The notes under the pieces are model-generated. The model made no database searches, had not been told where the DNA came from, and worked only from the letters and a program-made list of their open reading frames with translations. 64,000 nucleotides of DNA from an uncultured Chloroflexia bacterium (GTDB lineage: Bacteria; Chloroflexota; Anaerolineae; CG2-30-64-16). The translations under genes were made by a program, and so were the position numbers. This document shows, in pieces, positions 43,107 through 63,505 of the stretch (the stretch's first letter is position 1; every line of letters starts with the position of its first letter). Location of the stretch: assembly GCA_963810095.1 (NCBI GenBank), contig CAWEMM010000011.1, positions 301,844-365,843 on the forward strand, written 5' to 3'.

Positions 43107-46100
43107 TCAGGGCGCCCAGGGCGAGGAGGCCACGGCGTAGTTGCCGCCCATGAGCGAGAGGTCGAGGATGTTGACGGACCCGTCGCCGTTCACGTCGCTC
43201 GAGCCCGTACCGTTGCACACTCCCGGCGCCTGGCCGTAGGCGGAGCCGATGCAGGAGGCGTCCAGCACGTCGATCAGATTGTCGTCGGTCGCGTCGCCGC
43301 CCAGCAGGACCACGGTGCCCAGCGCCGTCGTCGGCCGCGTGGTGAGCGTCTGGCTGTCGGCATAGCTGCTCGCAGCCACGGCGGTGGTCGGCAGATACAA
43401 CGGACGGTCGACGAGCAGCCAGTAGGTGCTGCCCACCGTCAGCAGGTTGGGTGCAATGTAGGCCGTCGTGTAGGCGCCGCCCGCCGCGCTGGCCGCACCG
43501 GCGTACTGGGTCGCGCCGGCCTTGAGCTCCTGGTCGAACACCTGCACGGCCGCGCCGCTTTCGTTCGTCCGCCCCTGCAGGTCGATGAAGCCGGTGAACT
43601 GCGCGATGCCGGTGATCTTGACCGCGCCGTCGTCCGTGTCGGTGATGTCACGGCCGGGGGTCGAGGGCGCGCCGTAGCCCGCATTGTTCACGTAGATCTT
43701 CGCGCCGCCCACCGCCGCCCCGCTGGTGTCGGCCGGCAGGGCCGAGATATCCAGGTAGGTCGTCCACGGGCCGGCGCCGCTGCCGGGCAGGGCCGTGAAG
43801 TTGAAGGTCGCCACCGTGGCGCCGACTACGTCCTGCTGGGCAGCAGGCGCCAGCAGTTGGCAGCGGTAGCTCATCACGCCTGCCGCGACCGACAGCGCCG
43901 TGCAGTGGCCGTCCCAAGGTGCGACAAACGTCGTGCTGTTCAGCGTCAGGTACGCCGGATCGTATGTAACTTTGAAGGTCAGGCCGTACAGCTTGGCCGC
44001 ATCCACCTTCAGCTTCGCGTCGAAGCTCTGGCTTTGCAGGATGGTGCGCGTCGCGGCCAGCGTGTCGGGGACCATGTCCATGAACGGCTCGACGAAGGTG
44101 AAATTCGACGCATCCACCGAGCCTGCGACGCCGTCGCCCTGCGGCCCCGTCGGCCCGGCCAGGTCGCCCCACGAGTTGTACTGCGCGTTCAGGTTCGTGT
44201 TGGGCCCCGCGTTGTTCACGCCGGCGCCGCCGTTGGCCTTGAACAGGTTGCCGTCGATGTTGATCACGCCGCCGATGCCTGCCCCAGCATCCACGTGCAA
44301 CCCGTCGCGGCTGTTGTCGTGGATGTAGTTGCCGAACACCTTCAGCGACACGACGCTGCCGGCCAGCTCCAGGCCGTCCTGCCAGCCCATGACCGAGGTA
44401 TCGCGCAGCGTGAAGTTGTCCGCGCCTGCATTGACCAGCACGGCCGGGTCCGCCGTACCGCCGCCGTTCAGCGTGCCGGGTCCCTGGAGCACCACGTCGT
44501 CGGCATTGATCGTGAACGCCGGCGAGCCGTGGCCCACGGTCGCGTTGTTGAGGTAGATGGTCACGCCGTTCTTGGTGACGATGTTGCCGCCCGCATACGT
44601 GCCCTCGGCAACGTTGACCGTGCCGCCCTCGAGCACTGCGTCGAGCGCCGCCTGCAGCGTGGCGAACGCGTTGACGCCGAAGAACTTGCCCGGCGCCACC
44701 TCAGCACCCGCCGCGGAGCCGGTCCAGGTAGCATTGACGTAGACGTCGGACGGCACGACGAGCGTAAAGTTGGCGTTCGAGACGTCGAAGAAGATGTTGC
44801 CCAACGCCTCGATCTTGACGCGCGCCTGGGTCGTATTGACGCTGGGCAGCGTCACAGCCTCGGAGCCGTCATTCGCGGTGCTCGCAGCCAGGACGTAGGG
44901 GTACGTCTGCCCGCCGTCGGTCGACAGGGAGATCTTGACGTTGCTGGCGCCGACCGGCGCGACGTCTGTGCCTGCGGGGTTCCAGGTCACTGTCAGCACG
45001 GAGGGAGCGGCGTAGGGCCCGGCCACGTTGGGCGCAGTCACGAGGAACGGCCCCGTCCCCGCAGCCAGCAGCAGCGTCGTGTCTGCGTAGTTGCTGCCGC
45101 CGTTGCCATCGCGCGCAGTGAAGCGCATGTGGAGCGCAAGCGGGCTGGCGTTGACGCCCGAGAAACCGACGTAGGCCGAGGTGGGCAGGAATTCCGCGTA
45201 GCACTCCCGCACCGGGTAGTCGGCGTAGGGGGCGATGGGCCCTTGCCGGCACGCGCCGGTGTCGGCGTTGGTGTTGTTGTCCAGGATTTGCTGCAGGTCC
45301 GGGAACACCCGGGTCGGGTTCGTGGTCAGGTGGTTCTGGCCGGGCGAGTTGTACTGCAACGAATCGGCCGTGCTGATGATGCCCGACTTCGGGAACATGG
45401 CGAACAACGGGCCGTCGGTCTTCGTGTTGTTCAAGAGCGACGTGCCGGCGCTGCCGCCCCGGTCGTTCTGCTCCCACGAGTAGATCAACGGGTCGTTCTC
45501 GGCATCCGTGGCGCTGCCGGTCAGGCTGAAGGGCGTGCGCAGCGGGATGGTGTACTGGGCGGGTGCGGTGACCACAGGCGCCGTGTTGCCCGTGGACGTT
45601 ACCGTGAGCGGGCCGCCTGTATTGTCGACCGCGCCGCCCTTGTCGGTCTCGCCGACCCAGCCGGACGTGCCCGCGCTGAAGTCTTGCAGCGCAAGCATCA
45701 CCGGCACATCGGTCGAGGCCAGCGTTCCGCTGAATGTCACCTGGAAGCCGTTGCCGTTGAACGTGCCGCCCCCGAAGCCGCTAACCGTCACGGTCGCGCC
45801 AGAGGGCAGAAGGCCTGCGGCGCCCTTCAACGCTTCCACAGAGGTGCCAGAGCAGCCGGACGCGTTGGTCACGTCGGCCTGGCTCACATCCATGTTCAGG
45901 AGGGTCCCGCCGAAGCTCAACGTGTAACCCGTGTCGGCAAGCGCGTCCACCGTGACCGTACCACCTGTCGGCCAGCCGGCGACGGCCAGTCGTGCCCTTG
46001 ACGTTCTCGCGACTGGTCGCGGTGCAAGGCGTGCCGGCCGAAGCGCACGTGCCGAACACGATCCCGATCGGCGCCATGTCGACGTTCGCAGTCGCAGCGC

Positions 46101-49081
46101 CAAACGTGACCGTGAAGCCGCTGTTGCCCGCACCTGACACGGTGACTGTGCCGGGGAATCCGGCGATGGCGTTGATTGCGGCAGCAACGTTGGCGTTGCT
46201 GATGGCCGTTCCGCCGTTGCCAAGCACGGCTGAGAGGTTGCCGCCGATCTGAACCCGGAACGAATTGCCGGCGGTGCTGGCATTGAAGTTGGCGAGGGTG
46301 ATTGCCTGCTGTTCGTTCCCACCCTGCATCGCCGCCTTGATGCCTGCGCTGGTATAGTTCTGGCCGCGTGGTGATCAGCTACGGAATCGGCGCCGTCGTA
46401 GTTCAGCGTGTAGACGTCGCCGTTCGTGTCGAAACCGGTCAGGGACACGGTTTGCAGTTCGCTACCTTGCAGCACCGCTTGGATCCACACAGGCGAATAG
46501 CTGCTACCATTCGTGAACAGGGGCGAGACGTTGCCGTTATAGTCTAGCTTGAACGAGTCGAACCGCCGCCGTGTGTCGTTTCCTCGACCGAGGCGAAGCA
46601 GCCGCCGCAGCTCAGGTTGACCAGCTCGATGTTCGGCACGTCGGTGTTGGCCGATGCGCCGCCGTACGTGACCGCGAAGCCGGTCGAAGCTGCGCTGCCC
46701 ACGGTAACGGAGCCTGCAAAGCCCGCGATTGCGTTGATGGCATTCTGGATGTTGGTCGCGCTGATACGCCAGACCGCTCCCGCCGATCACGGCCGAGTCG
46801 TTGCCGCCAATGCGCACCTGGAACGGCACGTAGTAAGTCGCGGTGCCGCCGCCCGACGCAGCCAGGCCCGACGAGGCGGCCGTGTATTGGAAGCTGCGAG
46901 CCGTGGGAACGGCGGTGATGGCGAACGTGCCGTTATAGCCGGCGACGCCCACACTCGCGATCGTCACGACGTCGCCCACGGCGCGGCCATGCGGCGCGGC
47001 GGTGCTGATCGTCACAGTCGTGCCCGACTCGGTCGCACCGGGCACGGCCAGGGTCACTGTGCCGCCGCCCGAGCGGGCCAGGCCCGCAGTGGGATTGGTG
47101 AACGTGAAGGAGCGCGAGGTCGGTATGGTGTCGACCGTCCACGTGCCGTTGTAGCCCGCCACGCCCACGCCGGCGATCGTCACGACGTCGCCCGGCTGAA
47201 GCGTGTGCGCGGCTGAGACGGCGATGGTGACGACGTTGCCGTCCTCCGTCGCGCCGCCCACCGAGGCCGCGCTGGGGGCCGCGTTGATGGTCAGGCTGAG
47301 CGGCTGGACCGTGGCCGCCTGCGAGTAGCCGGGTCCGAACGTAACCGTCTGCACCTCGTTGCCGCCGCCGAAGCGGCGCAGCGAAACGGTCTGCACCTCG
47401 TTGATCGCGGATTGCGAGCTGGCCGTGTAACTGGAGATCTCCTGCTGGCTGCGCTGCGAGAAGTACGGATCGCTGTGCGCCTGCAGGTCGTCGGTGAGGC
47501 AGATGCCCGCATACGCCATCACCGAGGAGCCGCTGCCCGGTTCGACAGAGTTGGCTGCGCTGCGGTTGCCACCCGAACAGTTGAGTTGGTTGCCGTTGAA
47601 GGGGTGATTGCCGCTGAACTGGTGGCCCATCTCGTGCGCCACGTAGTCTACGGCGTAGTAATCGCCGTTAGGCGTGGGAATGCCAGTGCACCCGCCCGCC
47701 TTGTTCGACCGGCCCACGACGCCCAGATTTGCCACACCGCCGCCCGGCTGGCCCAGCCCCAGGTGCCCAATGTCATAGTTCGACGCGCCGATGATCTGCC
47801 CGATGACGTAGCGGGCGCGGGACGTGCTCGAGCAGCCTGTCACTTGCGACTGCGTGAAGCAGGCCGCCGCTCCGCACGGCCCGTTCGGGCCGGTCGCCTG
47901 CCCCCAGGTGTCAAGGTTGAGCAGATCGTTGTTCGCCACCAGCACCATGCGGATCGACATATCGTCCTCATAGAGCTGATTCACACGGTTAATTAACGTC
48001 ACCTTCGCCGGAGTCACGTTCGCCGAGCCGCCCCAGTACGTCGCGTAGCCGGGATCGGTAATGAGGGCGAGACGGTAGACGCGCAGGACGTCACCGGTCG
48101 CCACGTAGATCGCGGACGGCGCGGCCGCCGGGCCGACCTGGTAACTGCTGTATGCGACTGCGGAACCATCCGTGGCCGTCACCAGGTGGGTGTCGGCGTC
48201 GCCGTTCGGGTCGGCCACGAACTCGGCGGTGAACATGCCCAACTCGTCGGCCGTCGCGATAACCTCGCGCTTGGTGAAGTTCTCTTCGGGGTCCGAGATC
48301 GTGATCGTCACGGTCGAGTTGGCCGCAAAGCCGCTGCCACTCAGGGTGACGGCCGCGTCCGGGTGCTTTTCGCGCTGATCCAAAGTCAGGTCAGCCGCAT
48401 CCGCGTCGCGTTCGACCCAGCTATCGTCGGCATCGCGCGGGAGGTCGCTGCCGAAGTAGCTGGCGTAGACGCTCTGATCGAGATGGTAGTACGGCTCGAG
48501 ATACCATGCGCCGCCGGGCGAACGCACCGAGGCGTGGAAGCCGAGCGGGGTGAGGTCGAAGCGGATGGTGGCGGCGGGATCGTCGATGCCGCGGCCCCGG
48601 TACGTCTTGATGTCCGGATGCTTCTCGGCCAGGCCCGGCTCCATGATTGGCGCTTCCTGCACCGCAAAGCTCACGAACTGGCCGCAGGGGTCGGGCAGCG
48701 CGAGGGTGAGCGCGCTCGAAGAGGCAAGCGCGTCGGCCGAACGACCGCGGCTCGCCTCCCGCGGGGCGGTCGCAAGCAAGGCGGCCATACCCTCACGGTC
48801 CAGCGTGTACGCGCCGAAGAAGACGGGATCGACTGCCAGCTGGCTGGCCTGCACGCCGCGCTGCGCCTTCCCGCTCGCGGGCTGCCACAAGCTGCTGCCG
48901 GCGGCGCACGCGCCATCGAGTCCGGCACGCTGGCGCACGCCGGGTTCTGCCTGGCATCCGCGGCCGGCGCAGAAACTGCCACCGGCGCGGCTCGCGCCAC
49001 GGTCGCAGCCGGCGCCAGAAGCGCCGCGACGACCGCAAGCATGACCAAAGCAGAGAACAAGGGCGGGTGGGAATGCTTCAT
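43107..49081 (-). CDS. secreted M12B (reprolysin-like) zinc metalloprotease with C-terminal beta-helix, cohesin, X and dockerin modules (~2000 aa, several frameshifts)
   Basis: Signal peptide in ORF 48671..49081; HEMGHQFSGNH zinc motif and SVMAYAG Met-turn; cohesin-like LYGLTFKVTYDP; two EF-hand dockerin repeats GDATDDNLIDVLD and DVNGDGSVNILD. Confidence 0.85.
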
Positions 49082-49613: not shown

Positions 49614-50543
49614 CTACTGGCGTGAGACACGCGTCAAGGGCTTGAACCCCTCGCCCAGCACCGAGTGGTTCGGGCTGATGACGACGAAGGCTTCGGGATC
49701 GGCCTGGCGGACCAGTTCCTGCAGCCGGGGTGTCTGCCGGTTGTTGATCGCGGTGAAGATCAGCGTGCGCTCGGAGCCGGTGTAGCCGCCTTCGCCCCGC
49801 AGGATGGTCACGCCCCGATCCAGTTCGGCCATGATGCCGTCGCGCACCAGGTCGGGCTGCTTGGTAATGATGAACGCGCTGCTGCCCGATTCGAACCCAT
49901 TTTCGACCGCATCGATGACCCGCGCCATGACCCAGGCGGCAATCAGCGCGTAGAGCGCGGGGGCAAGGCCGAAGAAGAACGCCGCCAGCAAGAGGATCAC
50001 GGCGTCCATGAGCAGCAGCGAGGTGGACATGCGTACGCCGCGGAAGTATTCGAGCAGCTTGGCAGGGATCTCGGTGCCGCCGCCTGTGGCACCCGCCCGA
50101 AAGATGAGCGCCATGCCGAAGCCGTAGAGCAGGCCACCGTAGGCCGTGTACAGCAGCGGTTCGCCGCGCACGACGGGCAGGTACGGCCGGAGCAGGTCGA
50201 TGAGCAGGGCCGACAGGACGACCGTGAAGATGGTCTTGGGGCCGAACTGCAGGCCCAGGTAGCGCATGCCGATCAGCAGGAACGGCAGGTTGAGCGCGAT
50301 CAGGGTGACGCCGATCGGCCAGCCCCACAGCCGGTTGGCGAACTGCGCGAGCGCGGTGAAGCCGCCGGGCACGACGTTGTTCGGGTCGAGGAAGATGTCG
50401 ATCGCGAGCGCGAGGCAGATGCAGCCAACGACGATGAAGGCCAGGTCGAAGAAGGCGCCGCCCGTAATGGTGGCGCCGTTGGGAAAGCGGACGAGCACGC
50501 GGCGGCGAAACCGCCGAAGCGGCGCGGGTAGGATCAGGGTCAT
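49614..50543 (-). CDS. YitT-family membrane protein
   Basis: VVPGGFTALA, LNLPF, GATGGGTEI, LDRGVT...GEGGYTG, DPEAFV...VLGEGF. Confidence 0.88.
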   Translation of the reverse strand: MTLILPAPLRRFRRRVLVRFPNGATITGGAFFDLAFIVVGCICLALAIDIFLDPNNVVPGGFTALAQFANRLWGWPIGVTLIALNLPFLLIGMRYLGLQFGPKTIFTVVLSALLIDLLRPYLPVVRGEPLLYTAYGGLLYGFGMALIFRAGATGGGTEIPAKLLEYFRGVRMSTSLLLMDAVILLLAAFFFGLAPALYALIAAWVMARVIDAVENGFESGSSAFIITKQPDLVRDGIMAELDRGVTILRGEGGYTGSERTLIFTAINNRQTPRLQELVRQADPEAFVVISPNHSVLGEGFKPLTRVSRQ

Positions 50544-50572
50544 GAGAGCACTGCCGTAAGCGAGAATTGCGA

Positions 50573-50659: not shown

Positions 50660-51663
50660 TCAGATCCTTCGACGACGGGTGTACAGCGCTAACATGGCCA
50701 ACACAGGGACGATTGCCCAGGCAGAGGGCATGATTGTGGGTTGCGCTGCAAAGTGCGTCAGGCCCGCGGCGGTGGGGCCGGCAGTATGCACCAGGAAGGG
50801 GTCATGCCGGACTGCGCCCCCGTGCGTCAGCCGCTCTTCCAGCGCATACCAGTAGTCGCCGCCCCTCTCGACGCCGGGGTCAAGCCAGGCGTAAGAGGCG
50901 CCGTCCGCGCTGCCCGGGTTGTGCGCCGGGATAAGCGTGGCGTTGACTTTATGCCAGTCCCCCGCCCCCCGCCCGGCCCGGAAGACGTCAAAGCCCAACA
51001 CGTCAACCTCGGCGGTCGTGGTCCAAGTCAGCACGACGCCCCCGCCCTCGTAGCGCCCCGCCTGCCCTTCCAGCGAGACCGCGAGCGGCGTCTGGAACTC
51101 GATGCGGCAACTCTGGGTCGTCGATGCAATCTCGTTGGCGTCCGTATCGCCCGCCTTGTGGTAGCGGAAGTTCATGGTGAAGACGCCGAAGGTCTGGGGG
51201 GCCAAGGTGACACGGGCGAACGATCCGGCCGGATTGCTCGCCGGGACCGGCGGCTGGGGTAGAGCTGCGTGGCCGCAAAGCCGATGACGCCCGCGCTGGC
51301 ACACAGGCCGGAGCTTGCAGCATTGCAGGCATAATTCCGCGCCACGAACCCTGGCACGAACCAGCCGTACAAGGGCTGAATCTGCACGCCTGGCGCCGGG
51401 CCCGTGTCGACCACCTGTGCAATGGCAGGGTCAAACGTGAGTTCGACGTCGAGACCGTAAAGATTCTCGGCGTTCTCCGCGTAGAGGTCAATCACCGCGT
51501 CCGTGGTGGTGTAACCCAGATACGACGCCGGCTCACAACGAAAGAGGACAGGCGCACTGGGCGCGGCCGCCGCAGTCCCGGGGTTGAATGTCACGAGAAC
51601 CGCAAGCAGTGCGCACGCGACGAGCGCCGCCCTGGGTTGGAGTTGAGATCGAGTCACGCGCAC
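50660..51663 (-). CDS. cohesin protein A: signal peptide, cohesin, Fn3/Ig-like domain, C-terminal membrane anchor (frameshift near 51255)
   Basis: LYGLDVELTFDPAIAQVVD...PGVQIQP; PLAVSL...LTWTT..E...GFDVFR; tail PTAAGLTHFAA-hydrophobic-RRRRI. Confidence 0.8.
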
Positions 51664-51712: not shown

Positions 51713-52303
51713 CTACCGCTGCACCAACGGCAGCATCAGGCGGAACGCGGGGCCCGTCCCGCCTACCTTGACCGTGCCGTCCTGGTGCATTGTGGGGATC
51801 TCGATGCCGTCACGGTCCGCAGTCTTCTGATATTCAATGGCCAGCGGACTCACGCCCGCCTTCAGGGCCTTGAACGTTACCTGCGCAAGTGGCCCTGAGC
51901 CGGTTTTCGGCTCGGCGGGGTTAAGCTGAGTGAAAGCGTACCACACGAGCCCGCTGGTCTTGCAGTTCTCACGGGCGGGATCCGCGGCATTGAACGCCTC
52001 CTGCTTGATCACGAAACCCGGCTGCATAAAGGAAGCGAGCGGTTGAATCTGGACGCCCGGGCGCGCCGTGTTGGCATCCTGCACCTGCAAAAGGGCCGGA
52101 TCGAAACACATTCGAATATCGGCGCCATAAGCATTCGTAACGTCCTGCAGATACAGGTCCACCGTGAAAGTGCTGCCAGGCAGGACCGTACTCGACAAGG
52201 GATCGGGACGGGCGATCGCGGGACCTGCGGCGGCCGCAGCTCCCACGCCGAGCAGCAGGGCCAGGGCGAACGCCAACGTGGCAAACGAAAGACCTCTTCG
52301 CAT
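51713..52303 (-). CDS. cohesin protein B: signal peptide, cohesin, C-terminal LPLV motif
   Basis: AYGADIRMCFDPALLQVQD...PGVQIQP...TQLNP...GSGPLAQVTF; ends FRLMLPLVQR. Confidence 0.85.
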   Translation of the reverse strand: MRRGLSFATLAFALALLLGVGAAAAAGPAIARPDPLSSTVLPGSTFTVDLYLQDVTNAYGADIRMCFDPALLQVQDANTARPGVQIQPLASFMQPGFVIKQEAFNAADPARENCKTSGLVWYAFTQLNPAEPKTGSGPLAQVTFKALKAGVSPLAIEYQKTADRDGIEIPTMHQDGTVKVGGTGPAFRLMLPLVQR

Positions 52304-52305: not shown

Positions 52306-53454
52306 CTAAGAACCTCCGAGGATAACCGGCAAATAGACCGGCAGGAGCGGGAGCGGTGCGTTACCGAAAGACACCTCGCCGACGCGCTGCGGGCCACTGG
52401 ATGGGAAGCTCAAGCTAACCAGGGCCGGCGAGGTATTCCGATAGCCGCCGAGGGGGAACTGCTTTACCAGGTACTCTGCATCCAGCCGCAGTCCCTCGAC
52501 CCGGTAGCGCCCGTCGGCCCCTGTGACCACCGTCTTCGACGGCTCGGAGTCCACCCCCGCGACCAGCACGGTTGCCCCCGCCAAGCCGGGCTCGCCGGGG
52601 TCATGTACCCCATCCCCGTCCCCGTCGAGATAGACCATGCCCCAGATCACTGCGGTGGTGGGCAGCAGCGTACCCGTCGGCGTGGCCGAGGGTGTGAGCG
52701 TGGCAGTCGGAGTGTGACTGGGCGTCGCCGTGGACGTTGGCGTGGACGTGTCAGTCGCCGTCGGCGACCATGTAGCCGTTGGCGTGGAACTAGCCGTCGG
52801 CGACGCCGTGGCGCTGGGCGTAAAGGTGGGGGTAAAGGTCGCGGTCGGGGGAGCCGGCACGCTGATCGAGCCACTCTGCATATCGAGGGGGATCGTGATG
52901 CCGTTGCGGTCGGCGGCCTTGGCGTAGGTCATGGTGATCGGCGACGTGCCTGCCGCAATGCCCCGAAAGGTGATGGCCGCAATGGCGCCCGAGCCGCTGA
53001 CGGGGGAAGTCGGATTAACCTGGGTCAGCGCGTACCAGATAAAGCCGGCCTTGCTACAGTCAGGGTTGGCCGGCTCTACCGTGTTGCACGCGACGCGCTT
53101 GATGACGAAGTCGGGCGACAGGAAGCTGTACAGCGGCTCGATCTGCGTGCCGGGGCTGTAACTGTCCGCGTCCACCACCTGCACGACCGCCGGGTCGAAC
53201 TCCAGCCGGATGTCGGCGCCGTACAGATTGACGACATCCTGGATGTACATGTTCACGACGGCGGTCTGCCCGACCTGAACGGTCGCGTTGACCGGGTCGG
53301 TGCGCGCAAGGGCCGTGAGCGCAGGCCGTGCGGCGAGCCCGGCCGCGGTCGGGCTCGCAAGGAGCAGCAGTGCGAGGACGGGCCCAAGGAGCGTGAGCAT
53401 CGCGCCGAGAGGCCGCGGGAAGGGATTGCCCCGCCGGCGCAATGCACTCGTCAT
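52306..53454 (-). CDS. cohesin protein C: cohesin, PT linker, SdrD-B-like domain, C-terminal YLPVI motif
   Basis: LYGADIRLEFDPAVVQVVD...PGTQI; (PT)n; GMVYLDGDGDGVHDPGEPGLAG...TGADGRY; ends VYLPVILGGS. Confidence 0.85.
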   Translation of the reverse strand: MTSALRRRGNPFPRPLGAMLTLLGPVLALLLLASPTAAGLAARPALTALARTDPVNATVQVGQTAVVNMYIQDVVNLYGADIRLEFDPAVVQVVDADSYSPGTQIEPLYSFLSPDFVIKRVACNTVEPANPDCSKAGFIWYALTQVNPTSPVSGSGAIAAITFRGIAAGTSPITMTYAKAADRNGITIPLDMQSGSISVPAPPTATFTPTFTPSATASPTASSTPTATWSPTATDTSTPTSTATPSHTPTATLTPSATPTGTLLPTTAVIWGMVYLDGDGDGVHDPGEPGLAGATVLVAGVDSEPSKTVVTGADGRYRVEGLRLDAEYLVKQFPLGGYRNTSPALVSLSFPSSGPQRVGEVSFGNAPLPLLPVYLPVILGGS

Positions 53455-54482
53455 TTACCGCGCCTCAGCACCACCACGGCCGCGATGCCCGCAGCTGCGA
53501 GGAGGAGCAGGCCGCCGCCGGCGAGAAACAGGCTGTTGCCGCGGCCTTCCTGGGTCGCGGCCTCGACGCGCGTCGGCGCGGCGGGCGTCGGGGGAATAAT
53601 CGCCCCGGCCGCTGCCGCAGTCGCCTGTCCCGTTGCAGCTACGGCCGTCGCACCAGCCGGCGAGGTCGCCGCTCGGTGCTGTGCGGCAGGCTCGACCGGC
53701 TGTGCCGTTGCGGCCGGGGCATCGCCCGCGCCAGCTTGCGCCGTGGGCCCTCCTGCGGGGGTCGAAACCTCAGCCGGGGCCAGCGTGGCGGACGGCGCGG
53801 CGGTCGCAGCCTCGGCCGCGGGCGTCGTGCCGGGCGCGGTCGTGGGCGGCACGGCGGTGGCAGGCGCCTGCGTCACCTTCGGGGTTGCAGTGGCCGCCGG
53901 CAGCGCGCCCGGCGTAATCTCCAGCTTTGGCGCGGGCGCGGTGGGCAGGACCGTTGGATTGGCGGGCAACGCGGCGCTGCCGGCCGTCACCTGCACCGAG
54001 CCGTTGCTCGACGTGGCCGGAATCGCCATGCCGTCGCGGCTTGCCAGCGTGAGACCGGTGATCTCGACCGCGGCCGTGCCCGCGGCCTTGCCCTTCACAT
54101 AGAGCGAGGCGAGCGTACCCGTGCCACTTTTCGCCTCGGCCGGGTTGAGCTGGCTGACGACGAGCTGTGCCGTCCCCGCCGCATTATCCGCGGTGTTGAC
54201 CGGCGAGAGGTCATAGGAAAGGAAGTCGCCGGGCAGCCACTGCACCCCGGGCATGTTGGGATCCGCGTCTTCTATCTGGATCACCGTGGGGTCGAACTTG
54301 ATCTTGACGTCGAAACCGTAAAGGCCCTCGACATTCGCAACCTTTACGGCGAGCGGGATGACCTGGCCGGTTGGGATCTGCAGCGGTGTGGGCGCCAGCG
54401 AGACGGTGGCGCCGGCGGCAGCGGCGGAAACGGGAAGCAGCAGGCAAAGGCCGGCCAGGAGCATGAGTTTGGCAAATTTCAT
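53451..54482 (-). CDS. cohesin protein D: cohesin, long Ala/Pro/Thr stalk, C-terminal transmembrane anchor
   Basis: LYGFDVKIKFDPTVIQIED...PGVQW...NTADNAAG...SGTGTLA; tail LFLAGGGLLLLAAAGIAAVVVLRRGK. Alternative GTG start at 54497. Confidence 0.85.
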   Translation of the reverse strand: MKFAKLMLLAGLCLLLPVSAAAAGATVSLAPTPLQIPTGQVIPLAVKVANVEGLYGFDVKIKFDPTVIQIEDADPNMPGVQWLPGDFLSYDLSPVNTADNAAGTAQLVVSQLNPAEAKSGTGTLASLYVKGKAAGTAAVEITGLTLASRDGMAIPATSSNGSVQVTAGSAALPANPTVLPTAPAPKLEITPGALPAATATPKVTQAPATAVPPTTAPGTTPAAEAATAAPSATLAPAEVSTPAGGPTAQAGAGDAPAATAQPVEPAAQHRAATSPAGATAVAATGQATAAAAGAIIPPTPAAPTRVEAATQEGRGNSLFLAGGGLLLLAAAGIAAVVVLRRGK

Positions 54483-54513
54483 AACAAAATTATCCACATT
54501 TGTTCAATTTAGG

Positions 54514-55421
54514 TCAAGAACCCCGGACCAGGTCGAAGTCCCACGCGCCCGTCCGGTTCGAGCCGGCACTGGTGAAGCCGTCGGAGCAAGCCGACTTGAC
54601 GACGTAGAAGTACTTGGCCGCGGTGCTGCCCAGCGCGTTGGGGTCTTCGTAGCTGAGGCCCGACGTGAAGCCGAAAGCGGGCTCGGCCGGGGTGAAGTAG
54701 GGCGCCACCGCCCGGAAAATGCGATAGGTGGCCGCATCGGTCGCGGCGTTCCAGCTGAGCCGCGGCTGGCGGTCGTGTTCGGCTTGCCAATGGCGACGGG
54801 GACCGGCGGGGCGAGCGGCGTCGCGGCCAGGTCGCTGTCACTTTCCGTGTTCGGGATCGTGACACCGTTGCGGTCCGAGATCTTCGAATAGTAGATGTCG
54901 AGCGGCGACAGGCCCGCGCCAATTGCGCGGAGCGTGATGCGCGGCAATGGCGCCCGACCCCGACTTTTCCGGAGTTGGGTTCACCTGCGTGAACGTGTAC
55001 CAGATCGTGCCCACTTCGGCCGGCTCGTCGCAGAGCGGATCGGCCGTGTCCAGCGCATTGCAGGCCACCTGGCGGATCAGGAAATCGGGGAGCATGAAGT
55101 CGTACAGCGGCTGGATCTGCGTGCCGGGCGAATACGTGTTCGTGTCGACCACGAGGACCTTCGCCGGGTCGAAACGGATGCGGACGTCGGCGCCGTAGGC
55201 GTTGACCACGTTGTTGAGCCGGATGTCGACGGTGGTCAGCCCGCAGCCCGAACGCTGGGGGAGGAGCGCTGCAGGTCGACGTTCGCGGTCAGGGCCGGGG
55301 CCGTGACCGTTTCGGGATCGACGCCCTGGGCGCCGGCCGCGGCCGCGGGCAGCAGGAGCAAGGCCAGGGCGATGAGCCAGCGCAGGGCCGGGGCGCGGCG
55401 GAGTGAGGGCCGGTGGGACAC
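54514..55421 (-). CDS. cohesin protein E: cohesin plus Fn3-like C-terminal domain (about three frameshifts)
   Basis: Signal peptide (55236..55421); AYGADVRIRFDPAKVLVVD...PGTQIQP...TQVNP...SGSGAIA; tail PYFTP...YFYVVKS...SNRTGAWDFDLVRGS. Confidence 0.8.
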
Positions 55422-55576
55422 GAGCGCCTCCTTTGGGAATCAGAAAGTTGCAGGCGGGACGAGAGTCCTGGGTGGTGCCGGTCAAGCGCTTACGAACGCC
55501 CGAGCAGCAACACCCAGTTTAACCCTCGTCCCGCGAGTCACCTAATCAAAGCCAGCCGGATGACGGCTGCTCCGGT

Positions 55577-58500
55577 TCAGGGCGTCCAGGGGGAAGCCAC
55601 AATGCCGAAGTTGCCGCCCATCAGGGTCAGGTCGAGGATGTCGACCTTGCCGTCGCCGTTCACGTCGGGCGAGCCCAGCCCGCCACAGGTGCTCACCACC
55701 GGCGCCACGCCGTACGCACCACCAATGCACGACGCGTCGCCCACCTCGATTGATTCGCTGTTGTTCGCATCGCCGCCCTTAAGCACGAGCTGAGCAAGCG
55801 AGGTCAACGCGGCCGTCGCAGAGCTGCTTGTTCGGCGCTGGCGAGGCCAGCGTCTTGACATAGAGCGGCTTGTCGACCGCGAAGTAGTAGGTCTGACCGA
55901 CGACCAGCATCGCGCCGCTCGGCGTCGTGTACGCGCCGCCCTTGGCACTCGATGCGCTGGCAAGCGCCGGCGCAACCAGCCCGCCAGTGCTGTAGACGTT
56001 CAGCACCGCGCCCGAGTCGTCCGCCCGGCCCTGCACGTCGATGAAGCCGGTGTAGCCGGCGATCGGCGTGATGGTGATCGTGCCGTCGACTGTGCCCGTG
56101 ATGTCGCGGGCGTTTGCGACGTCGGCGAGCTTCACGTTGTTCAGGTACACCTGAGCGCCGTTCTGGGTGCCCGCAACGGTCGTTGCGGAGTCGACATCAA
56201 AGGTCGTGGTCCACGACCCAGCCAGGCTCAGCCCCGTGCCGGTTGGCGTGAAGTTCAGGACGGCGACGGCTGCGGTCGGCGCCGTCGTCAACGGCCCCAG
56301 CAGGTTACAACTGTAGCCGATCTGGCCGGCAGGCAAGCCGGGCAGCACCGAGCACTTGCCCGTGAAGGGAGCCGGGAAAGTAGCGCTGTTGTACGTCAGT
56401 TTCGCCGTGTCGTAGACGACCTTGAAGGTCACGCCGTAGACGTTGACGGTGTCGGCGCGGACTTCCACGTCGAACGGCTGCCACGCAGGCACCGTTTGGA
56501 TCAGCGTTCGCGTGTCTCTGGTCGCCAGCCGTCGTAGGATCGGAGTCGAGGTACACCTCGGCAAACGTGCAGTTGCCTGTGTCGACGTTGGTGAAGGTCG
56601 GGCAGGTCTTCGTCGCAAACGAGTTCCACTGCGCGGGCAGCTTGGAGGCCCACTCCGGCGGCTGCAGCGGCTGCGCCACGCTCTTGATCGCCTCGGGGCC
56701 GGTGACCTTGAACAGGTTGCCTTCCACCGTGGCGACGCCCTCCACAGCGCCGTCCACCTGGACGCCCGATTCGGTCAGGTTGTGGAAGTAGTTGTTCACC
56801 ACCTTCAGCGACTTGACCGCGCCGGCGACCTTCACGCCGTCCTTCCAGTTCTTGACCTCGACGTTTAGCAGCGCAAAGTTGTCGGCGCCGGCCTCTACTT
56901 CCACCGCAGCGGTGCCGTCCGTATTGCCGGTGCCATCGAGCACGCCGTTCTGCAGCGTATCGTCGTCGCCAACGATGGTGTATGCCGGCGTGCCGTGCCC
57001 CACCGTCTGTCCGCCAAGGTCGATCGTGATGTTGTTCGCCGTCACGACCACGCCGCCGGGGTAGGCAGTAGTGCTGGTCGGGTAGGTGATCTTCGTGCCC
57101 GGGGCTGCGCAGTTCAGCACCAAGCCCTGAGTGTCCGCGCTGTCGCCAGGGTTAATGCTGGTCGGGATCGACGTCAGGATGATCGACCCGGCCGCATCGC
57201 CCCACCACGGGGTGAAGTCAACGTTGCCGCTCACCTGCGACGACGGGTTGCAGGGCGAGCCCCACCAGTTGTTCTTCGCATCGACGGTCGCGCCGGTGTT
57301 CGTGTTGTTCAGGGCCTTCGTCGGATTGCCGCCCAACTTGCTCCCGTTGACCTTCGCGGTCGCATCAGCACCTTCGACAAGGATGCCGGTGGCATCGGTA
57401 TCGATGGTCGAGTTCTGGATGTTGGCGTATACCGTCGCACCACTGGTGTTGCTCGGGTTGTCCTTGACATACACACCCGCGATCTTGGAAGTCAAGATCG
57501 TGACGCCGTCGACCTTTATCGCGGTGGAGCCGCCGTTGCTGCCCGTGCTCATCGGGTAGCCGTCAAAGTTGTTGACCCAGACGCCGTAATCGCCGCCAGT
57601 GACCGTGCCGCCGGTGATGGCAATCTCAGCGGTGGTCGTGTCATTCCAGGCGTTGTACCCGACCGTTTCCTGGGTCACATCTGTAGCGGTGATCGTGTTG
57701 TTCTCCACGATCGCATCGACAGCGCCGCCCAGCGAGAACAGGGCAATGCCGTCCCACCTCGAGTAAGCGGTGGCAGCCTCATCAGCAACCGAGAGGACGT
57801 TGTCCTTGATCGTCAGAGCGCTTGCGTCGCCGTAGTGCAGATTGTGGAAAATGCCCTTACGGGTAGACTGAATTGAATTCCGGCTGATACTGCCGGTCGT
57901 CCCGGGGTTTGCCCGGTAGAAATTGCCCGTCTGGACGCCAACACGCACATTGGTCATCACGTTGTCGGTGACGTCCGCGTAGAAGTTGTCGTAGATGATC
58001 ACACCGATGCCGTAGCCATACGGGATGTGTCCGAGATTGTCGAACTTGTTGTATTGGATGTAGTTGTTCGACGTGGCGGCAGTATTCACGTAGTTGTCGA
58101 AGTCAACCGCAGAGTAGGCAGTGTTCTTGAAGATGTTGTTGGCGACTGTGATGTTACCGACACCCTCATTGCTCACCAACGCCTCGCAGGCGTCCACATC
58201 GACACCGTTCACCAGCTTGCCGCTTGTCAGAGCCGGGTTATTGCCATCGAAGGTCAAGCCCTTCAGCGTAACGTTGCCGACCTTGACATACATGATCGTC
58301 GTTGTCGTGGAGCCGTACGGATCAGGGTTGCTGGTTGCGGGCTGGAGCACTGCTTCGGCAACCCGCGTCCCTGTGTTGGGGTTCACGGTATCGTTCGGGC
58401 CGAGAATCGTCAGCGACTTGTTGACAGTGATGTCCTCGACGTAGGTCCCGGCGGCCACGTGAATCGTGCCGCCCGCCGCAGCGGTGCTGACGGCCTTCTG

Positions 58501-59406
58501 AATCGTCTTGAACGGAGACGCGACCGTCCCGACGTTCGCGTCGTCGCCTGTCGTGGCATCGACATAGCAGTCCGTGGTGCAGGGGCTCTGGACTTCATAG
58601 TGGATGTCGTCGAAATAGAAACCCATGAGGGCGGCATTGCCGTCCGAGCCGGCGGTGAACTTCAGACGGCTGTGGTCGGCATAGGCCCCACTGTTCGCGT
58701 GGCGCCACTCGTTCAGCGCAGCGTTGTAGACAACCGGGGCCCCGTCGTCCAGCGAGACGGACACCCGATCGACAAACCCGCTCTTGGTCAGCGCGTGAAG
58801 GCGAGCTTGTGCCATTCGGTGGTGGTGACCCCGGTGAACAGGTCGATCCTGTCAAAAGCGGCGCCGTTTGTGATGCCGTAGATATTGACGCCGCCGCTGC
58901 TGGTGTTCTCCAGATAGGCGAGGTAGTTGCCGCGATCCATTCCATCGGCCGTCCCGGTCGTGATCTTAATCGTCTGCCCGTCCGGCGTGTCGCTGGCGGC
59001 CTTGAACCAGAGCGATGCCACGAAGCGTTCGCCGTCTGCGCTGACGCCATTGCCGTCGCCATTCTCGACAATCGGGCCGTAGGGCGTACCCTGGCCCGGG
59101 CTGCCGTAGCCGCGAGCATAGAGCCATGCCTGCGAGCCGCCGTGAACGGGGCTGGAGACGATCCTCGTCACCAAGATCATTGTTGGTAAAGTCCGGCTGT
59201 GCGCCGCCGGACCAGCCGCCCTATGTAGGGCCGCCGGCGGGGCTTATTGGCCCGAGCACGAACCCTTCCGAGGTCTCGAAACCTGTCGAATACGAAGGCC
59301 CGCTCGCGAACGCCGCCGGCGCGAGGGCCAAGAGCAGCGCGCCCAGAAGCACGCTGACGACGAGGAAGGCCGCGGCCTTCCGGTGGAGGGTGGATGATTG
59401 GGACAT
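55577..59406 (-). CDS. large secreted right-handed beta-helix protein with C-terminal cohesin, X and dockerin modules (several frameshifts)
   Basis: Signal peptide at 59406; YVDATTGDDANVGTVASPFKTIQKAV...GTYVE beta-helix cap; cohesin VYGVTFKVVYD; dockerin GDANNSESIEVGD...DVNGDGKVDILD. Confidence 0.82.
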
Positions 59407-59498
59407 ACCGATTTCGCTCCACAACACTGTGCCGGCGGGATGATTTTGGCCGGCCGCGCGCCCGGTGCGCGCGGCCGGCCTGGGTGCTACTTCCGGAC

Positions 59499-62400
59499 CT
59501 ACTCGGTCCAGTCGGATGCGGTCTTGCTGTAGTTGCCGCCCATGAGCGTCAGGTCGAGGATGTCGACCTTGCCGTCGCCGGTCACATCGGAGCAGGCCCC
59601 GCCGGCCGTGCACACGATGCCGGTATTCCCATAAGCGCCGCCGATGAGCGTCGCATCCGGGTTGTCGATGATATTGTCGTTGGTCGCGTCGCCGCCCAGC
59701 AGCACCACGTTGTTGAGCGATGTGGTAGGCCGGTACTCTAGCTTCTTGAAGTCGCCCAGCTCGTCGCGGTCGTCGCCGTGGTGGGCAGGTACAGGTCGCG
59801 GTCAACCTGGAAGTAGTAAGTCGAGTTCATCACGAGCTGCGGCCCCGTGGTATACGCGCCGCTGCTGGCGCTGGTGGCGCTGGCCTTGAGCGTCGCGCCG
59901 CTGATAAGGGCCTGATTGTACACACGAACCGCGGCGCCGCTGTCGTTCGTGCGGCCCTGCAGGTCCACGTAGCCCGCAAAGGCTGCGAGACCATCGATGA
60001 CGATCGTACCGTCGTGGTCGTCGGTGATGTCCTTGTCGGGGGACGAGGGAGCGCCGTAGCCCGCGTTGTTCACCCACGCCTTGATGCCGTCGCGCGCAGC
60101 CGACGCAAGGCCGGAGTCGTGCTTGAGGTCAAGGTAGGTCGTCCAGGGCGAGAGGTTGATATGGCTAGCGTCGGGCACGACCTTGAACGTAATGGCATTG
60201 ACGACCGCAGCCGTCGCGTTCACGTCGAGCGCCGGGCTCAGCAGCGAGCAGTAGGAGGTGATCACGCCTGCCGTGCCGTGTTGACCGTACAGGCGCCGAA
60301 GGCGCCGTTGGCGATACCCTGGAACTGCAACAGGGTCGGGTCGTAGGTCAGCTTGTATTGCACCGCGTAAAGACCCGCCACATCGGCCAGCACATTGACG
60401 CTGAAGGTCTGGCCCTCGACGACGCTCATCGGCGTGATCGCCGCGTCGGTGAAGACTTCGACGAAGGTGAAGGGTGTCGCGTCGACGTTGCCGCTCGTGC
60501 CGTCGCCGGCCGGCGCGGCCGAGCCCGCGATGCTGCCCCACGAGTTGTACTCCGCGGGGATCGTGCCGGTGCTCTCGTTCCAGATGCCCCAGGCAGTGTT
60601 GAACTTGAACAGGTTGCCGTTGATCGTCACGACGCCGCTCAGCGCGGTGGCGCTGCCGAAGTGGAAGCCGTCGTGATTGTCGTGCAGCCAGTTGTTCACC
60701 AGCTTGAGCGAGGCGTGCGTGCCGTCGACCAGAACGCCCGCGAGGCCCCAGTTCTTGATCTCCACGCCGTCGAGCGTGAAGTTGTCCGCGCCCGAGTTGA
60801 CTTCGATCGCGTTGTTGGTCGTGGCGCCGCCGTCAAGGACGCCGGGGCCCGTGACCGTCACGTCGTCCGCGTTGATGGTGAAGGCCGGCGAGCCATGGCC
60901 GATCGTCGCGCCGTCCAAGTTGATCGTCGCGCCGTTCGCGTTGACCACGATGCCGCCCGGATGCGTGCCGGCGGCCACGTTGTACGTGCCCGCGCCGGCG
61001 ATGATGATCTTGCCGCCGGGCGCGACGCGGCCACATGCGCTGATGAGTGTCGGTGAACGGGTCGAGCTGGCCGCCCGTGCCACCCGGCGCCGCGCCGGCT
61101 TCACGTAGACGATTGAGCAGCATCGCCGGAGACAACCGCTGATCCTCGATGACCGCATTGTTGTTCGCCGCGCTCATGGCAGCGATGTCGGTGTAGCAGA
61201 CGGGCCGACAAGTGCGAGGATCGCAATGTCGACCACGTTGCCCGAGCCCCATGTGTTGCCAGTGAACGTCAGGTTGCCCTGCTCGATCACCCAGCCCTGC
61301 GTCGCCGTAAACGAGGTTGTTCTTGACTGTCGCCCAGGATCACGCCGCTGATGTACGCAGGCTGGCGCAGCGCGTAGATCGTGTTGCCTTCGATCAGCGT
61401 GCCGCTGAAACCGCCCGACGTGACAAATCGCGGCGGGTTACGGGGTCACTGCTGGTCGCATACTGCACCGTGGATCGTGTTGTTCTTGATGGTGGCGTTG
61501 TTCGCCTGAATCCAGATGAGATCCTGGCTGCCGGATTCGGTCTTCTCGATGTCGAAGCCCTGAATGGTCACGCCGTTGGCGAAGATGTGGAAAAGATTGT
61601 CCCCGGCGAACGGAACCTTGATAAAGGTGTTCGCGCGCCTGCGCCAAGCAGCGTCACGGCCTTGTTGAACTACGGTCTTTGCGGGTTCGGTGTACGTCCC
61701 GGCCGACCACGTTGACCGTGCCGCCGGGCTTGACCAGACTGACGCCTTCCTGCGATGCGGCCTGCCGTGCCGGCCTGGGCGCCCGCGCCGTCACGTACAG
61801 CGAGGAGAAGTCGCCCTGGAAGCCGTTGGTCCCGCGGCCGGCGGTCGTCTCGACGTTCGTGTCGGTGCCGTGCCGAGGTAGGGGCGTGAAGTCGAAGTTG
61901 GCCGAGGCGGCGCCGAGGATGTCGGGCTCGGCCGCCGGGCGGAACGGCCGTGCCGCCGAACGCGACAGGGATCTGCGCCGCGTAGCCGGGCTCGGCGCTG
62001 TTGGCGGTCGAGACGACGGGCGTGGTCGGTGCCGAACCAGTTGCCGCTGAAGTTCTTGAGGTTGGTCGCCGGGCGCGGGCAGCGAGCCGCCGGTCTGGCG
62101 GTCGACGATCTGGCCGTACCAGTTGCCGCTGATGTCGTTGTTGCTGAAGGTGCAGTTCAGCGCGGTCTGCACCGGGGCTGTTCGTGCCGCCGCTGGCATC
62201 GAGGAAGAGGACGCCGACGGTCCAGTTGTTGGTGATCTCGTTCTCGACGACGTCAGGTTGTCGGTCTGGTTGCGGAAGATCAGGCCGGTGCGGTTGACGT
62301 CGATGACGTTGTTGCGGATCGTGTGGCCGTTGCAGTTGTTGATGTCGATGCCGGTGCGGTTGCCGGTGATGATGTTGTCGCGGATCAGCGTTGCCCGTGA

Positions 62401-63505
62401 AGGCCTGGCCCTGAATCGGCGATCCCGGCGCTGTTCAGGCACCGGGTTGTTCCAGTCGGTCGTGTTGTTGCCGGCGCGGCGTGATCGTGAAGCCGGCGAC
62501 GGTCACGATTGCTGGCGCCGCAACTGCAGCGTTGTGCCGGCGCCGCCGATCGGGCCGCTGATGCGTGGTGGTCGCCGCGCCCGCGCCGAGCAGGCTCAGC
62601 TGCTTGTTGACGTTCACGTCCTCGTCGTACGTGCCGGCCGCGACGTTGACGGTTGCCGGCGCAACCGCATTGACGCCGTCCTGGATCTTGGCGAAGGCGT
62701 TGAAGCCGAAGAACGCGCCCGGGCAACTTCGCTGCCCGTCGTCTTGCCGGCCCAGTCGTCGTCAACCCAGACGTCGGTTGCCTGGTCCTCGAGGTCGATG
62801 TTCAGCACCTCGCCGCCAGTCAGCGTGAACGTGATGCCGTCGAGGAAGCCGTCGAATGACGCTCCAGCCCGAGCCCGTCTGGAAGCTGATGTACTTGACG
62901 GTGTCGCCGCCGTAGTCGATCGGCGTGCCGCAACCGGTGACGGGCAGTCACGAGCCGAAGTGATGGACCAGTCTGAATCGACCCCGCAGTATAGCGGCCA
63001 CGGGGGCGAGCCTAGAGCTCGCCGCCGTAATCGTGGTCGTACCAGGTCAACTGGTTCTCCGGCCGCCGTGGTGGTCCAGGTGTTCCACTGTTAGCTCACC
63101 GGAGCCCAGTTGAAAGACGTAGAGGCTCGGCGGTCAGCCGATGGCAGTACCAGGCTCGGTGCAGTCGGTGCCGGGGACGTATAGACGACGCGCTGAAGTC
63201 GACATCGCTCGGTCGTGCCGCGTGTATGGTGTGGTACACGATGTCTGGATGTCCGGCCACCGTGATCGAGTGGCCCAGGTAGGGCGCCGGATCGAAGTGC
63301 AACTCCATCTTGTCGCTGCGGAGACGTTTCGCGCCAAGAGCCGGCGCCAACGTAGTGGGCGCTGGAGCTGGCGGTCGTGCCGGCGAGTGGCGCCGTGGCC
63401 GCCAAAGGTCACGTTGACCGGGCCCGCCGCGCTCGCGGCCAGCGGCACTGCCAGCAGCAGCAGGCAGAATGCCAGGACGATGACTCGTCGCAACGAGTGG
63501 GACAT
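59499..63505 (-). CDS. large secreted multi-beta-helix protein with C-terminal cohesin, X and dockerin modules (heavily frameshifted)
   Basis: ggagga RBS and signal peptide at 63505; parallel beta-helix fragments (DNIITGNRTGIDINNC); cohesin LYAVQYKLTYDP; dockerin GDATNDNIIDNPD...DVTGDGKVDILD. Confidence 0.75.

Follow-up and report, generated by a model that had tools for sequence, protein, structure and literature searches.

The stretch of DNA analyzed here (the window, 64,000 nucleotides) is the final 64 kb of contig C11 in the genome of an uncultured Chloroflexia bacterium (GCA_963810095.1; 6.13 Mb in 16 contigs, completeness 88.5%), and our subject is a locus at 43107-63505, on its minus strand, that encodes cohesin and dockerin domains. 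The locus comprises three large genes for secreted proteins, five small genes for proteins with a cohesin domain and one YitT gene, transcribed in the order gene A, gene B, the five small cohesin genes, YitT and the giant gene; the contig ends 495 bases upstream of gene A. A preliminary description had spoken of eight co-oriented secreted genes interrupted only by a YitT gene, and every one of the eight is present: the open reading frame list and its translations place all real genes from 63505 down to 43107 on the minus strand. All eight proteins have a hydrophobic, signal-like N-terminus (for small cohesin 1 it is seen in intact orthologues), with Kyte-Doolittle values of 2.5-3.0 over 17 amino acids (aa) in the three large proteins. 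The gene for the YitT-family membrane protein (49614-50543; Pfam PF02588, 8.3e-57; DUF2179, 2.3e-20) is less an interruption than a conserved neighbor, since it occupies the same place in the two closest related loci (L021:4073-4999 and L024:11626-12549), where it directly follows the last cohesin gene in copies that are 76% identical.

By open frames and Pfam matches, gene A (59499-63505) encodes a secreted beta-helix protein of about 1335 aa and gene B (55577-59406, frameshifted in the assembly) a secreted DUF1565/beta-helix protein of about 1275 aa, both with a C-terminal unit of cohesin, X module and dockerin that we call the cassette. The giant gene (43107-49081) encodes a secreted protein of about 2000 aa with an M12B/reprolysin-like metalloprotease domain (residues 345-545, 47484-48086; PF13574/PF13688/PF13583), repeated immunoglobulin (Ig)-like modules, a short beta-helix and a 329-aa cassette (43110-44096; delimited with AlphaFold2, Foldseek and phmmer). 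The protease domain matches Reprolysin_2 at 1.4e-31 (110 bits against a cut-off of 27), and the motif HEMGHQFSGNH at residue 495, with its three His and the Glu, places it by sequence in M12B; the consensus Gly of metzincins is shifted by one position in this motif. We read the cargo of the giant as a predicted M12B metallopeptidase. Gene A matches Pfam Beta_helix, NosD and DUF1565 together with Cohesin (4.1e-4) and Dockerin_1 (1.8e-4), gene B matches DUF1565 (7.2e-7), Beta_helix (7.7e-7) and Dockerin_1 (1.9e-4), and the giant matches Dockerin_1 (6.6e-5). In the NCBIfam scan of the locus proteins no model reached its cut-off apart from the parallel beta-helix repeat TIGR03804 in a fragment of gene A (24 bits against 19.45); matches below threshold were to NosD, the Kustd1514 S-layer protein, SdrD and the LIC10774 family of surface proteins, the last with gene B at 1.2e-10. 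The cargo is thus as first described, a metalloprotease and beta-helix proteins, with no glycoside-hydrolase family found in it by Pfam.

The dockerins lie at the very end of all three large proteins (gene A, 59541-59693; gene B, 55619-55774; giant, 43149-43298), where Dockerin_1 (PF00404) scores 22.1, 22.0 and 23.5 bits, respectively, against a cut-off of 22.9; with neighboring stretches gene A reaches 22.9 and gene B, where alignment also marks the domain, 24.4, so that all three count as above the cut-off. Two EF-hand-like loops can be recognized in each; both loops have D at positions 1 and 12, and positions 3, 5 and 9 are D, N, T, S or E in all three dockerins of the window; the loops of the giant are DATDDNLIDVLD and DVNGDGSVNILD. 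On this evidence the window dockerins are members of PF00404, with its duplicated calcium-loop and helix segments. Their cysteines are not uniformly placed: those of gene A differ in position from those of the giant and gene B.

Between gene B and YitT stand the five small genes, each with a signal peptide and one cohesin, as Pfam, tblastn and intact orthologues bear out. Three of the five pass the cut-off of Pfam Cohesin (PF00963; 24.1 bits) with 31.7, 31.4 and 25.5 bits, and the two frameshifted ones are 41-59% identical to the others (tblastn) and have intact orthologues elsewhere; together with the three dockerins, counted with their neighboring stretches, this is the outcome of the profile searches for the two domains named in the preliminary description. 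Small cohesin 1 (about 54514-55451, start approximate, placed by tblastn and intact orthologues) has at least three frameshifts and fragments without a Pfam match, is 54-59% identical to its paralogues (tblastn) and 60-62% identical over about 250 aa to its intact orthologues in L021 and L024. Behind its signal peptide and cohesin comes an FN3-like C-terminal domain with ..DFDLVRGS as its last residues, and we saw no anchor. Small cohesin 2 (53451-54497; Cohesin 1.7e-5, 25.5 bits) has, after signal peptide and cohesin, a linker of about 140 aa of which two thirds are Ala, Thr or Pro, and then a C-terminal transmembrane helix (hydrophobic window 2.58) followed by RRGK; orthologues in L021, L023 and L024 end alike. 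Small cohesin 3 (52306-53454; Cohesin 2.6e-7, SdrD_B 6.2e-8) continues from its signal peptide and cohesin into a Pro/Thr linker, an SdrD_B-like Ig domain and the end ..VYLPVILGGS (..HLPLILGGS in orthologues), while small cohesin 4 (51713-52303; intact, 196 aa; Cohesin 2e-7) has only a signal peptide, the cohesin and a C-terminal tail, ..FRLMLPLVQR. Small cohesin 5 (about 50660-51663, placed by tblastn and orthologues) carries signal peptide, cohesin, FN3-like domain and a C-terminal transmembrane helix (hydrophobic window 2.05) followed by RRRRI; it is 41% identical to its paralogues (tblastn) and has one frameshift near 51250, and its orthologues in L022 and L023 map across frames -2/-1. The ends of small cohesins 3 and 4 share a form, [hydrophobic]-LP-x-x-x-R/K (the "LP tail"), that also occurs in about 30 other secreted proteins of the genome and whose columns are nearly invariant in a 28-row alignment of small cohesins. 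That alignment also vindicates the motif first quoted for these domains (YGxDxxxxFDP...PGxQI...SGSG.LA): its residues fall on invariant or nearly invariant columns (Y59, D62, F67, D68; P82, G83, Q85, I86; G135, S136, G137, A140).

In the assembly, frameshifts interrupt five of the eight genes, with about 16 frame changes in the 20-kb locus. Gene A is split over at least five frame segments (its homologue P0085 maps across -2/-3/-2/-1/-3), the homologue P0034 of gene B maps across frames -2/-3/-1, orthologues map across frames for small cohesins 1 and 5, and the giant gene has an N-terminal frameshift as well as inner stretches that read in a different frame. The 2041-codon open frame of the giant gene was ruled out as a single protein by its Arg-rich stretches and by the better-looking sequence in another frame, and the domain map of the giant's middle is uncertain because of compensating frame errors inside this open frame. 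So many frame changes in 20 kb could mean that the frameshifts are real and the genes a decaying set of pseudogenes, but short reads speak against this. Short-read contigs from two runs of one metagenome study match the stretch, several at 100% identity (shares of the stretch in the two runs, which may include the source sample, are 0.15 and 0.05), and they hold a single inserted base at two places, following 59752 in one contig of depth 2 and following 60274 in one contig of depth 3.4. Position 60274 is the exact site at which the homologue alignment changes frame, 59752 lies inside the 59741-59801 overlap of two open frames, and with both bases added the open frame in 59499-61400 grows from 364 to 558 codons. 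At these two sites the frameshifts are assembly errors, and overall they look like assembly errors. On the strength of the added bases and the lengthened open frame we reject the pseudogene reading and give it next to no credence; intact orthologues elsewhere, a genome of the completeness and contig number given above, and an M20-type peptidase gene outside the locus (C8:10206-11850) that is likewise split over two frames also tell against it. Frequent single-base deletions would leave gene calls fragmented across the whole genome.

The cassette holds more than the preliminary description had seen in it. The two-EF-hand dockerin ends stand, and the stretch before them is not an X module alone; it is a cohesin followed by an Ig-like X module. 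That the supposed X module is more than an Ig domain was first signaled by the Cohesin match inside gene A (21.0 bits in Pfam, below the 24.1 cut-off), and the overlooked internal cohesin lies just before the X-dockerin in all three large proteins. The AlphaFold2 model of the giant's last 329 residues has a predicted local distance difference test value (pLDDT) of 93.0 and a predicted template modeling score (pTM) of 0.83, with a beta-sandwich at 1-130, a low-confidence linker at 131-160, a second beta-sandwich at about 157-264 and dockerin helices at 277-285 and 310-318. The beta strands of the X module (157-264; pLDDT at least 95) precede the dockerin helices, so that in the predicted model an Ig-like X module stands directly before the dockerin, as in type II-like X-dockerins. 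The best Foldseek matches in the PDB are 3kcp_A (1.6e-15) and 4fl4_C (3.9e-15; chains 4fl4_C/I/L range to 1.2e-13), the CohI9-X-DocII end of CipA from Clostridium thermocellum; the X-dockerin chains 4u3s_B and 4wi0_B match at template modeling scores (TM-scores) of 0.67-0.68, and the first module by itself matches single cohesins such as 6kge_A (0.78). By sequence (phmmer) the only PDB matches of the giant are likewise to the CipA X-DocII, 2b59_B at 0.0022 and 3kcp_A at 0.0076. Each of the large proteins, as modeled for the giant, is thus predicted to end in cohesin, X module and dockerin.

The small cohesins were represented in modeling by small cohesin 4, for which 26 metagenome relatives were found (47-71% identical, nearly all 185-198 aa, 20 of the 26 with a precomputed Cohesin annotation). 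Its AlphaFold2 model (51716-52303, with 27 relatives) has a pLDDT of 85.9, and Foldseek returned 69 PDB matches at E<=0.001, those listed being cohesins, with 6kgd_A at the top (E 4.9e-10, TM-score 0.79). On this model small cohesin 4 has the nine-stranded beta-sandwich of the cohesin fold. Judged indirectly, by TM-scores, it fits type I cohesins (0.73-0.80) better than type II (0.54-0.60; 5k39_A, 1qzn, 2b59_A) and would not belong to type II. Both kinds of domain therefore model as they had been named, as cohesin and X-dockerin folds.

Neither component is peculiar to this genome. When species-representative genomes were scanned with a small-cohesin profile, 44 related loci emerged, nearly all in metagenome-assembled genomes (MAGs) labeled Anaerolineae, Anaerolineales or "Chloroflexia" (hosts include Promineifilum, Ardenticatenaceae and Ca. 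Brachythrix), with single distant matches in MAGs labeled Bacteroidales, Moorella and Dehalococcoides; the guess of a Chloroflexota host agrees with these relatives. In 27 of the 44 loci the flank holds a cassette match that extends into the dockerin, mostly immediately upstream and on the same strand, and in these 27 two to four tandem small cohesin genes follow the large cassette-bearing genes; of the remaining 17 loci, 9 have available DNA that begins within 400 bases of the first cohesin. L021 and L024 keep the order of the small genes (cohesin-FN3-like, cohesin-linker-transmembrane helix, cohesin-SdrD_B-LP tail, cohesin-LP tail, YitT). In G076, a closed genome of 2.6 Mb from the same class, five cohesin genes come after those for two large dockerin proteins (1587 and 1412 aa), and one of the five encodes a dockerin as well. 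Among 300 genomes sampled from the phylum, 8 matched the small cohesin, 10 the cassette and 6 both, in 4 of these 6 on one contig and within about 10 kb; the cassette thus occurs in 6 of 8 cohesin-positive genomes versus 4 of the 292 others. The two gene sets do co-occur in related genomes, and they do so side by side.

The cassette itself is widespread. A search with it against 1.84 billion proteins found 1299 cluster representatives at E<=1e-3 and 102 at E<=1e-30; among the full-length matches listed (600-2136 aa) it is C-terminal, usually ending in ..GGNY....SPWTP. When 35 full-length members are aligned, the short beta-helix before the cohesin proves to be part of the conserved block, and the cargo of these 35 is mostly of the same kind (Pfam Beta_helix in 28, NosD in 14, DUF1565 in 6). 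Pfam finds Dockerin_1 in only 4 of the 35 and Cohesin in 2, and routine annotation therefore hides the system. The same alignment has two invariant Cys in the internal cohesin and two Cys in the dockerin region (columns C787, C803, C1006, which is nearly invariant, and C1018), a pattern that suggests disulfides in an extracellular module.

For one cohesin-dockerin pair we modeled the complex, using residues 28-185 of small cohesin 4 and residues 160-329 of the giant's cassette, each with its alignment. The complex score was 0.39 (runs 0.51, 0.39 and 0.29) against 0.00 for the best of three controls, which lends the pairing weak support; at least 97% of contacts are common to the runs, and the partner has a pLDDT of at least 90. 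Of 80 solved complexes, 58 reached the mark applied to this score, as did 2 of 110 mismatched pairs, and scores at the mark but no higher than 0.60 belonged to 7 of the 80 solved complexes and to both passing mismatches; as cohesin-dockerin complexes have already been solved, the score may reflect likeness only. Together with the folds, the model leads us to infer that cohesin-dockerin pairs of this locus bind. The contrary case is that the modules are only structural spacers, that the small proteins serve some unrelated purpose and that no cohesin-dockerin pairing takes place. Pfam scores close to the cut-offs and the weak complex prediction would fit it, as would the many non-cellulosomal modules that reportedly have no known partner in a 2009 survey by Peer and colleagues; we nevertheless hold it to be very improbable, for cohesin and cassette are tightly and repeatedly adjacent in many genomes, they co-occur in the phylum sample at the rates just given, and the calcium-loop residues are conserved.

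The reading that we prefer, and to which we would give a probability of about 65%, is that the locus encodes a cohesin-dockerin system, non-cellulosomal and conserved in Anaerolineae, by which proteins are docked to the cell envelope. All three large proteins would be exported via the Sec pathway, each consisting of a variable cargo (an M12B zinc protease or a DUF1565/right-handed beta-helix domain), the conserved short beta-helix and the C-terminal cassette. The five small proteins would each display one cohesin outside the cell, two of them tethered by a transmembrane helix (one via its long Ala/Thr/Pro linker), two ending in the LP tail and one having no recognizable anchor. The calcium-loop dockerin of a large protein, stiffened by its X module, would then plug into a small cohesin, and this plugging would keep the protease and the beta-helix proteins at the cell surface. 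What the analysis shows directly are the folds, the module order, the conserved synteny and the co-occurrence, while binding, the choice of partners, the position on the surface and the task of the cargo are inferred.

In this scheme the small proteins look like envelope anchors, to go by their transmembrane helices and LP tails and by the LysM ends of relatives. They had been called monovalent adaptors; that they have one cohesin each holds, and the role of adaptor fits their ends less well than that of anchor. Nor is the system as a whole simply monovalent, as the large proteins each bear an internal cohesin of their own. A C-terminal transmembrane helix is found in 21 of 105 cohesin open reading frames of related loci, and in more distant Anaerolineae four of the four cohesin proteins tested (L047:9737-11662, L048:2908-4698, L051:7380-9215 and L042:10544-11674) carry three C-terminal LysM repeats (Pfam, E 1e-51 to 1e-58), three of the four with two cohesins; by eye, such ends occur in ten loci. 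The LysM proteins suggest sockets bound to peptidoglycan. Cohesins of this family are repeatedly joined to envelope-binding ends, and a socket fixed on the cell therefore fits. Small proteins with a cohesin and a C-terminal dockerin were also seen within the cohesin runs of relatives (L017:12286-13287 in G076, 334 aa; L025:6734-7591, 286 aa, with both matches under the Pfam cut-offs); these could possibly be true adaptors, and the window has none.

Several observations weigh against this docking system. The predicted complex backs binding of small cohesin 4 to the X-dockerin of the giant at a weak grade; the two frameshifted small cohesins, in their assembled form, match nothing in Pfam, and the dockerins of genes A and B, taken alone, fall just below the Pfam cut-off. 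Three of the five small cohesins lack a proven anchor. Of the 8 cohesin-positive genomes in the phylum sample, 2 are without a cassette match, and of the 10 cassette-positive ones 4 are without a small-cohesin match at E<=1e-5; these counts come from samples in which related genomes are not independent. The M12B cargo is no conserved part of the system: it is absent by tblastn from all 44 related loci, and the search of those loci and of the whole genome matched only the giant gene itself. The locus touches the contig end, and each base added to repair its frames rests on a single contig of depth 2-3.4, with short-read coverage at two frame changes as against about a dozen others.

The internal cohesin opens another route, on which no scaffoldin would be needed: the large proteins would chain head to tail or form a lattice, giving fibers, a sheath or an S-layer-like coat on the filament, with the small cohesins merely as starting points in the membrane or wall, or as caps. 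A cohesin stands before the X-dockerin in all three large proteins and is strongly conserved, with its invariant Cys, across the 35 full-length relatives; the genome has about five cassette dockerins (three in the window, two on contig C8) to about eight small cohesins, and does not have the ratio of many dockerins per scaffoldin known from cellulosomes; and the small cohesin-plus-dockerin proteins of relatives (L017 and L025) would suit such chains. A different reading of the cassette's pTM of 0.83 is that the internal cohesin packs on its own X-dockerin, and we regard self-assembly as rather unlikely. A bolder picture joins it to the anchors: an Anaerolineae surface built without a scaffoldin, on which the large proteins extend head to tail from tethered cohesins into fibers or a coat along the filament, and on which the LP tail is an undescribed envelope-attachment tag. 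We think this doubtful, and state it as a conjecture.

The locus had also been called complete, a claim that cannot stand: it abuts the contig end, and contig C8 begins with further members, so that the system is larger than the window. At C8:1-7300 (locus L066), on the minus strand, we saw two cassette genes together with two or three genes for small cohesins, and an X-dockerin stretch of about 100 residues repeated almost exactly (1607-2323 and 3685-4038). These repeats may be the cause of the breaks between contigs, and C11 may continue from its end into the start of C8.

Beta-helix cargo raises the question whether the locus is instead a cellulosome-like complex in which lyases or hydrolases are docked on a polysaccharide that they degrade. 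Pectate lyases and a number of glycosidases have a beta-helix fold, one Pel9A-like_beta_helix and one Pectinesterase match occur among the 35 relatives (Pfam), and the first large protein of G076 matches Pect-lyase_RHGA_epim at 3e-8. The window genes, however, have no glycoside-hydrolase, polysaccharide-lyase or carbohydrate-binding module (CBM) family by Pfam and NCBIfam, one of the cargoes is a protease, the locus lacks a multi-cohesin scaffoldin, and among solved structures gene B matches by sequence only 43 residues of a xylosidase (E 0.0065), which we treated as chance; we consider a cellulosome-like complex distinctly improbable. That the beta-helix cargo acts on polysaccharides is nonetheless conceivable. 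A cellulosome is defined by a scaffoldin with at least two cohesins and a dockerin-fused glycoside hydrolase (PMC13487519). Each of the five cohesin proteins of the locus has one cohesin, and no glycoside-hydrolase family was found by Pfam or NCBIfam; by these features of its sequence the locus is not a cellulosome. The same source presents the minimal cellulosome-like system of Cellulosilyticum lentocellum, which has a single-cohesin protein instead of a polyvalent scaffoldin; there the cohesin protein bears a CBM and the partner is a GH5 cellulase (PMC13487519), whereas here the cargo is a protease and beta-helix proteins.

The closest relative by architecture is the C-terminus of CipA (3KCP, 4FL4, 2B59), which has the same order of cohesin, Ig-like X module and dockerin and supplies the best structural and the only PDB sequence matches of the giant's cassette. 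In C. thermocellum the X-DocII of CipA docks to the type II cohesins of the wall-anchored proteins SdbA, OlpB and Orf2p and so holds a large secreted protein at the cell. The differences are several. CipA is a scaffoldin of nine cohesins, whereas the cassette here ends cargo proteins (protease, beta-helix), and no glycoside hydrolases occur at this locus; the receivers of CipA are of type II, whereas the small cohesins that would receive the cassette are structurally nearer type I; and the tethers are a transmembrane helix, the LP tail and LysM rather than the SLH domains of C. thermocellum, no SLH domain being found by Pfam in the locus genes of the window. The cassette superposes on CipA with a TM-score of only 0.44-0.49 (root-mean-square deviation 8-9 A), and the arrangement of the domains therefore differs.

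Other systems share single features. Among the fold matches of small cohesin 4 are ScaG/CohG of Ruminococcus flavefaciens (4WKZ, 4N2O), where monovalent cohesins receive an X-dockerin; ScaE of the same species is a similar single-cohesin protein. These proteins work within a cellulosome that has multi-cohesin scaffoldins, and their anchor is a sortase anchor, unlike the four or five different monovalent cohesins, with other anchors, of the present loci. Clostridium perfringens cohesins (2W1N, 2VO8, 2JH2) are also among the fold matches and, as proposed here, belong to a non-cellulosomal assembly of large secreted proteins. There cohesin and dockerin lie inside soluble glycosidases and toxins that bind each other, and dedicated anchored cohesin genes, or an operon of this layout, are lacking. 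Non-cellulosomal modules as a class were surveyed by Peer and colleagues (FEMS Microbiol Lett 291:1). Such modules are reported from bacteria and archaea that do not degrade cellulose, often on non-glycosidase or non-catalytic proteins, sometimes both in one protein; the non-cellulosomal cohesin 2XDH of Archaeoglobus fulgidus is among the fold matches of both small cohesin and cassette. What distinguishes the present case from such modules is a conserved multi-gene locus with a fixed set of single cohesins and a fixed C-terminal cassette. By analogy, then, the locus would seem to work most like the X-DocII to type II cohesin anchoring of C. thermocellum combined with the single-cohesin receptors of R. 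flavefaciens. New are the fixed cassette on cargo proteins, the conserved set of four to five single cohesins with transmembrane, LP-tail and LysM ends, the protease and beta-helix cargo and the host group. The preliminary description knew of no characterized system with this layout, and in our literature searches (non-cellulosomal cohesin-dockerin, Chloroflexi, Anaerolineae) none of the papers listed dealt, by title or abstract, with a system of this kind.

Filamentous Anaerolineae abound in sludge, sediments and digesters, and to our knowledge their envelope and surface proteins have been poorly studied. If the docking system is real, its kit, a cassette present on more than 100 protein clusters plus an unvarying set of single cohesins with anchors, would account for the retention of very large proteases and beta-helix proteins at the surface. 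The cohesin-dockerin principle would then reach a new phylum and a new task, and the loci would be a source of new orthogonal cohesin-dockerin pairs for protein engineering.

The LP tail is not confined to the cohesins. Genome-wide, among 10,934 open frames with 200 codons or more, 32 have the motif [hydrophobic]-LP-[LVIFA]-[LIVMT]-x-[RKHQ] no further than 3 residues from the stop, where 1.7 would be expected from its internal rate. The proteins concerned are diverse, mostly large and secreted; 22 examples were inspected. Besides small cohesins 3 and 4 of the window, genes with the tail include C11:148310-153574, C6:1853040-1857281 and C9:201045-205028, and the tail also stands at protein ends in other Anaerolineae loci. 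No NCBIfam model matched it, and a literature search on C-terminal sorting signals in Chloroflexi turned up nothing on it among the papers listed. The distribution makes the tail a candidate tag for envelope sorting or attachment.

The genome has a second cohesin-dockerin pair, outside the window, at C6:142193-152189 (locus L065). There a 1109-aa protein (C6:142193-145519) has five tandem cohesin-like repeats (Pfam Cohesin, 2.1e-15, and the small-cohesin profile), which makes it look like a polyvalent scaffoldin, and directly upstream stands a 2084-aa protein with Dockerin_1 (1.6e-7); no glycoside hydrolase was seen beside them. In a separate search of the ESM Atlas, the nearest clusters (Cohesin, CarboxypepD_reg/NOMO1-like and Dockerin_1, from Chloroflexota and Bacillota) and the first match, a cluster labeled viral with Cohesin on 10% of its members, were taken as leads only and not used as evidence. 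Below 43107 housekeeping genes start, and among the open reading frames there one on the minus strand at 41204-42133 resembles panB, from its N-terminal sequence judged by eye.

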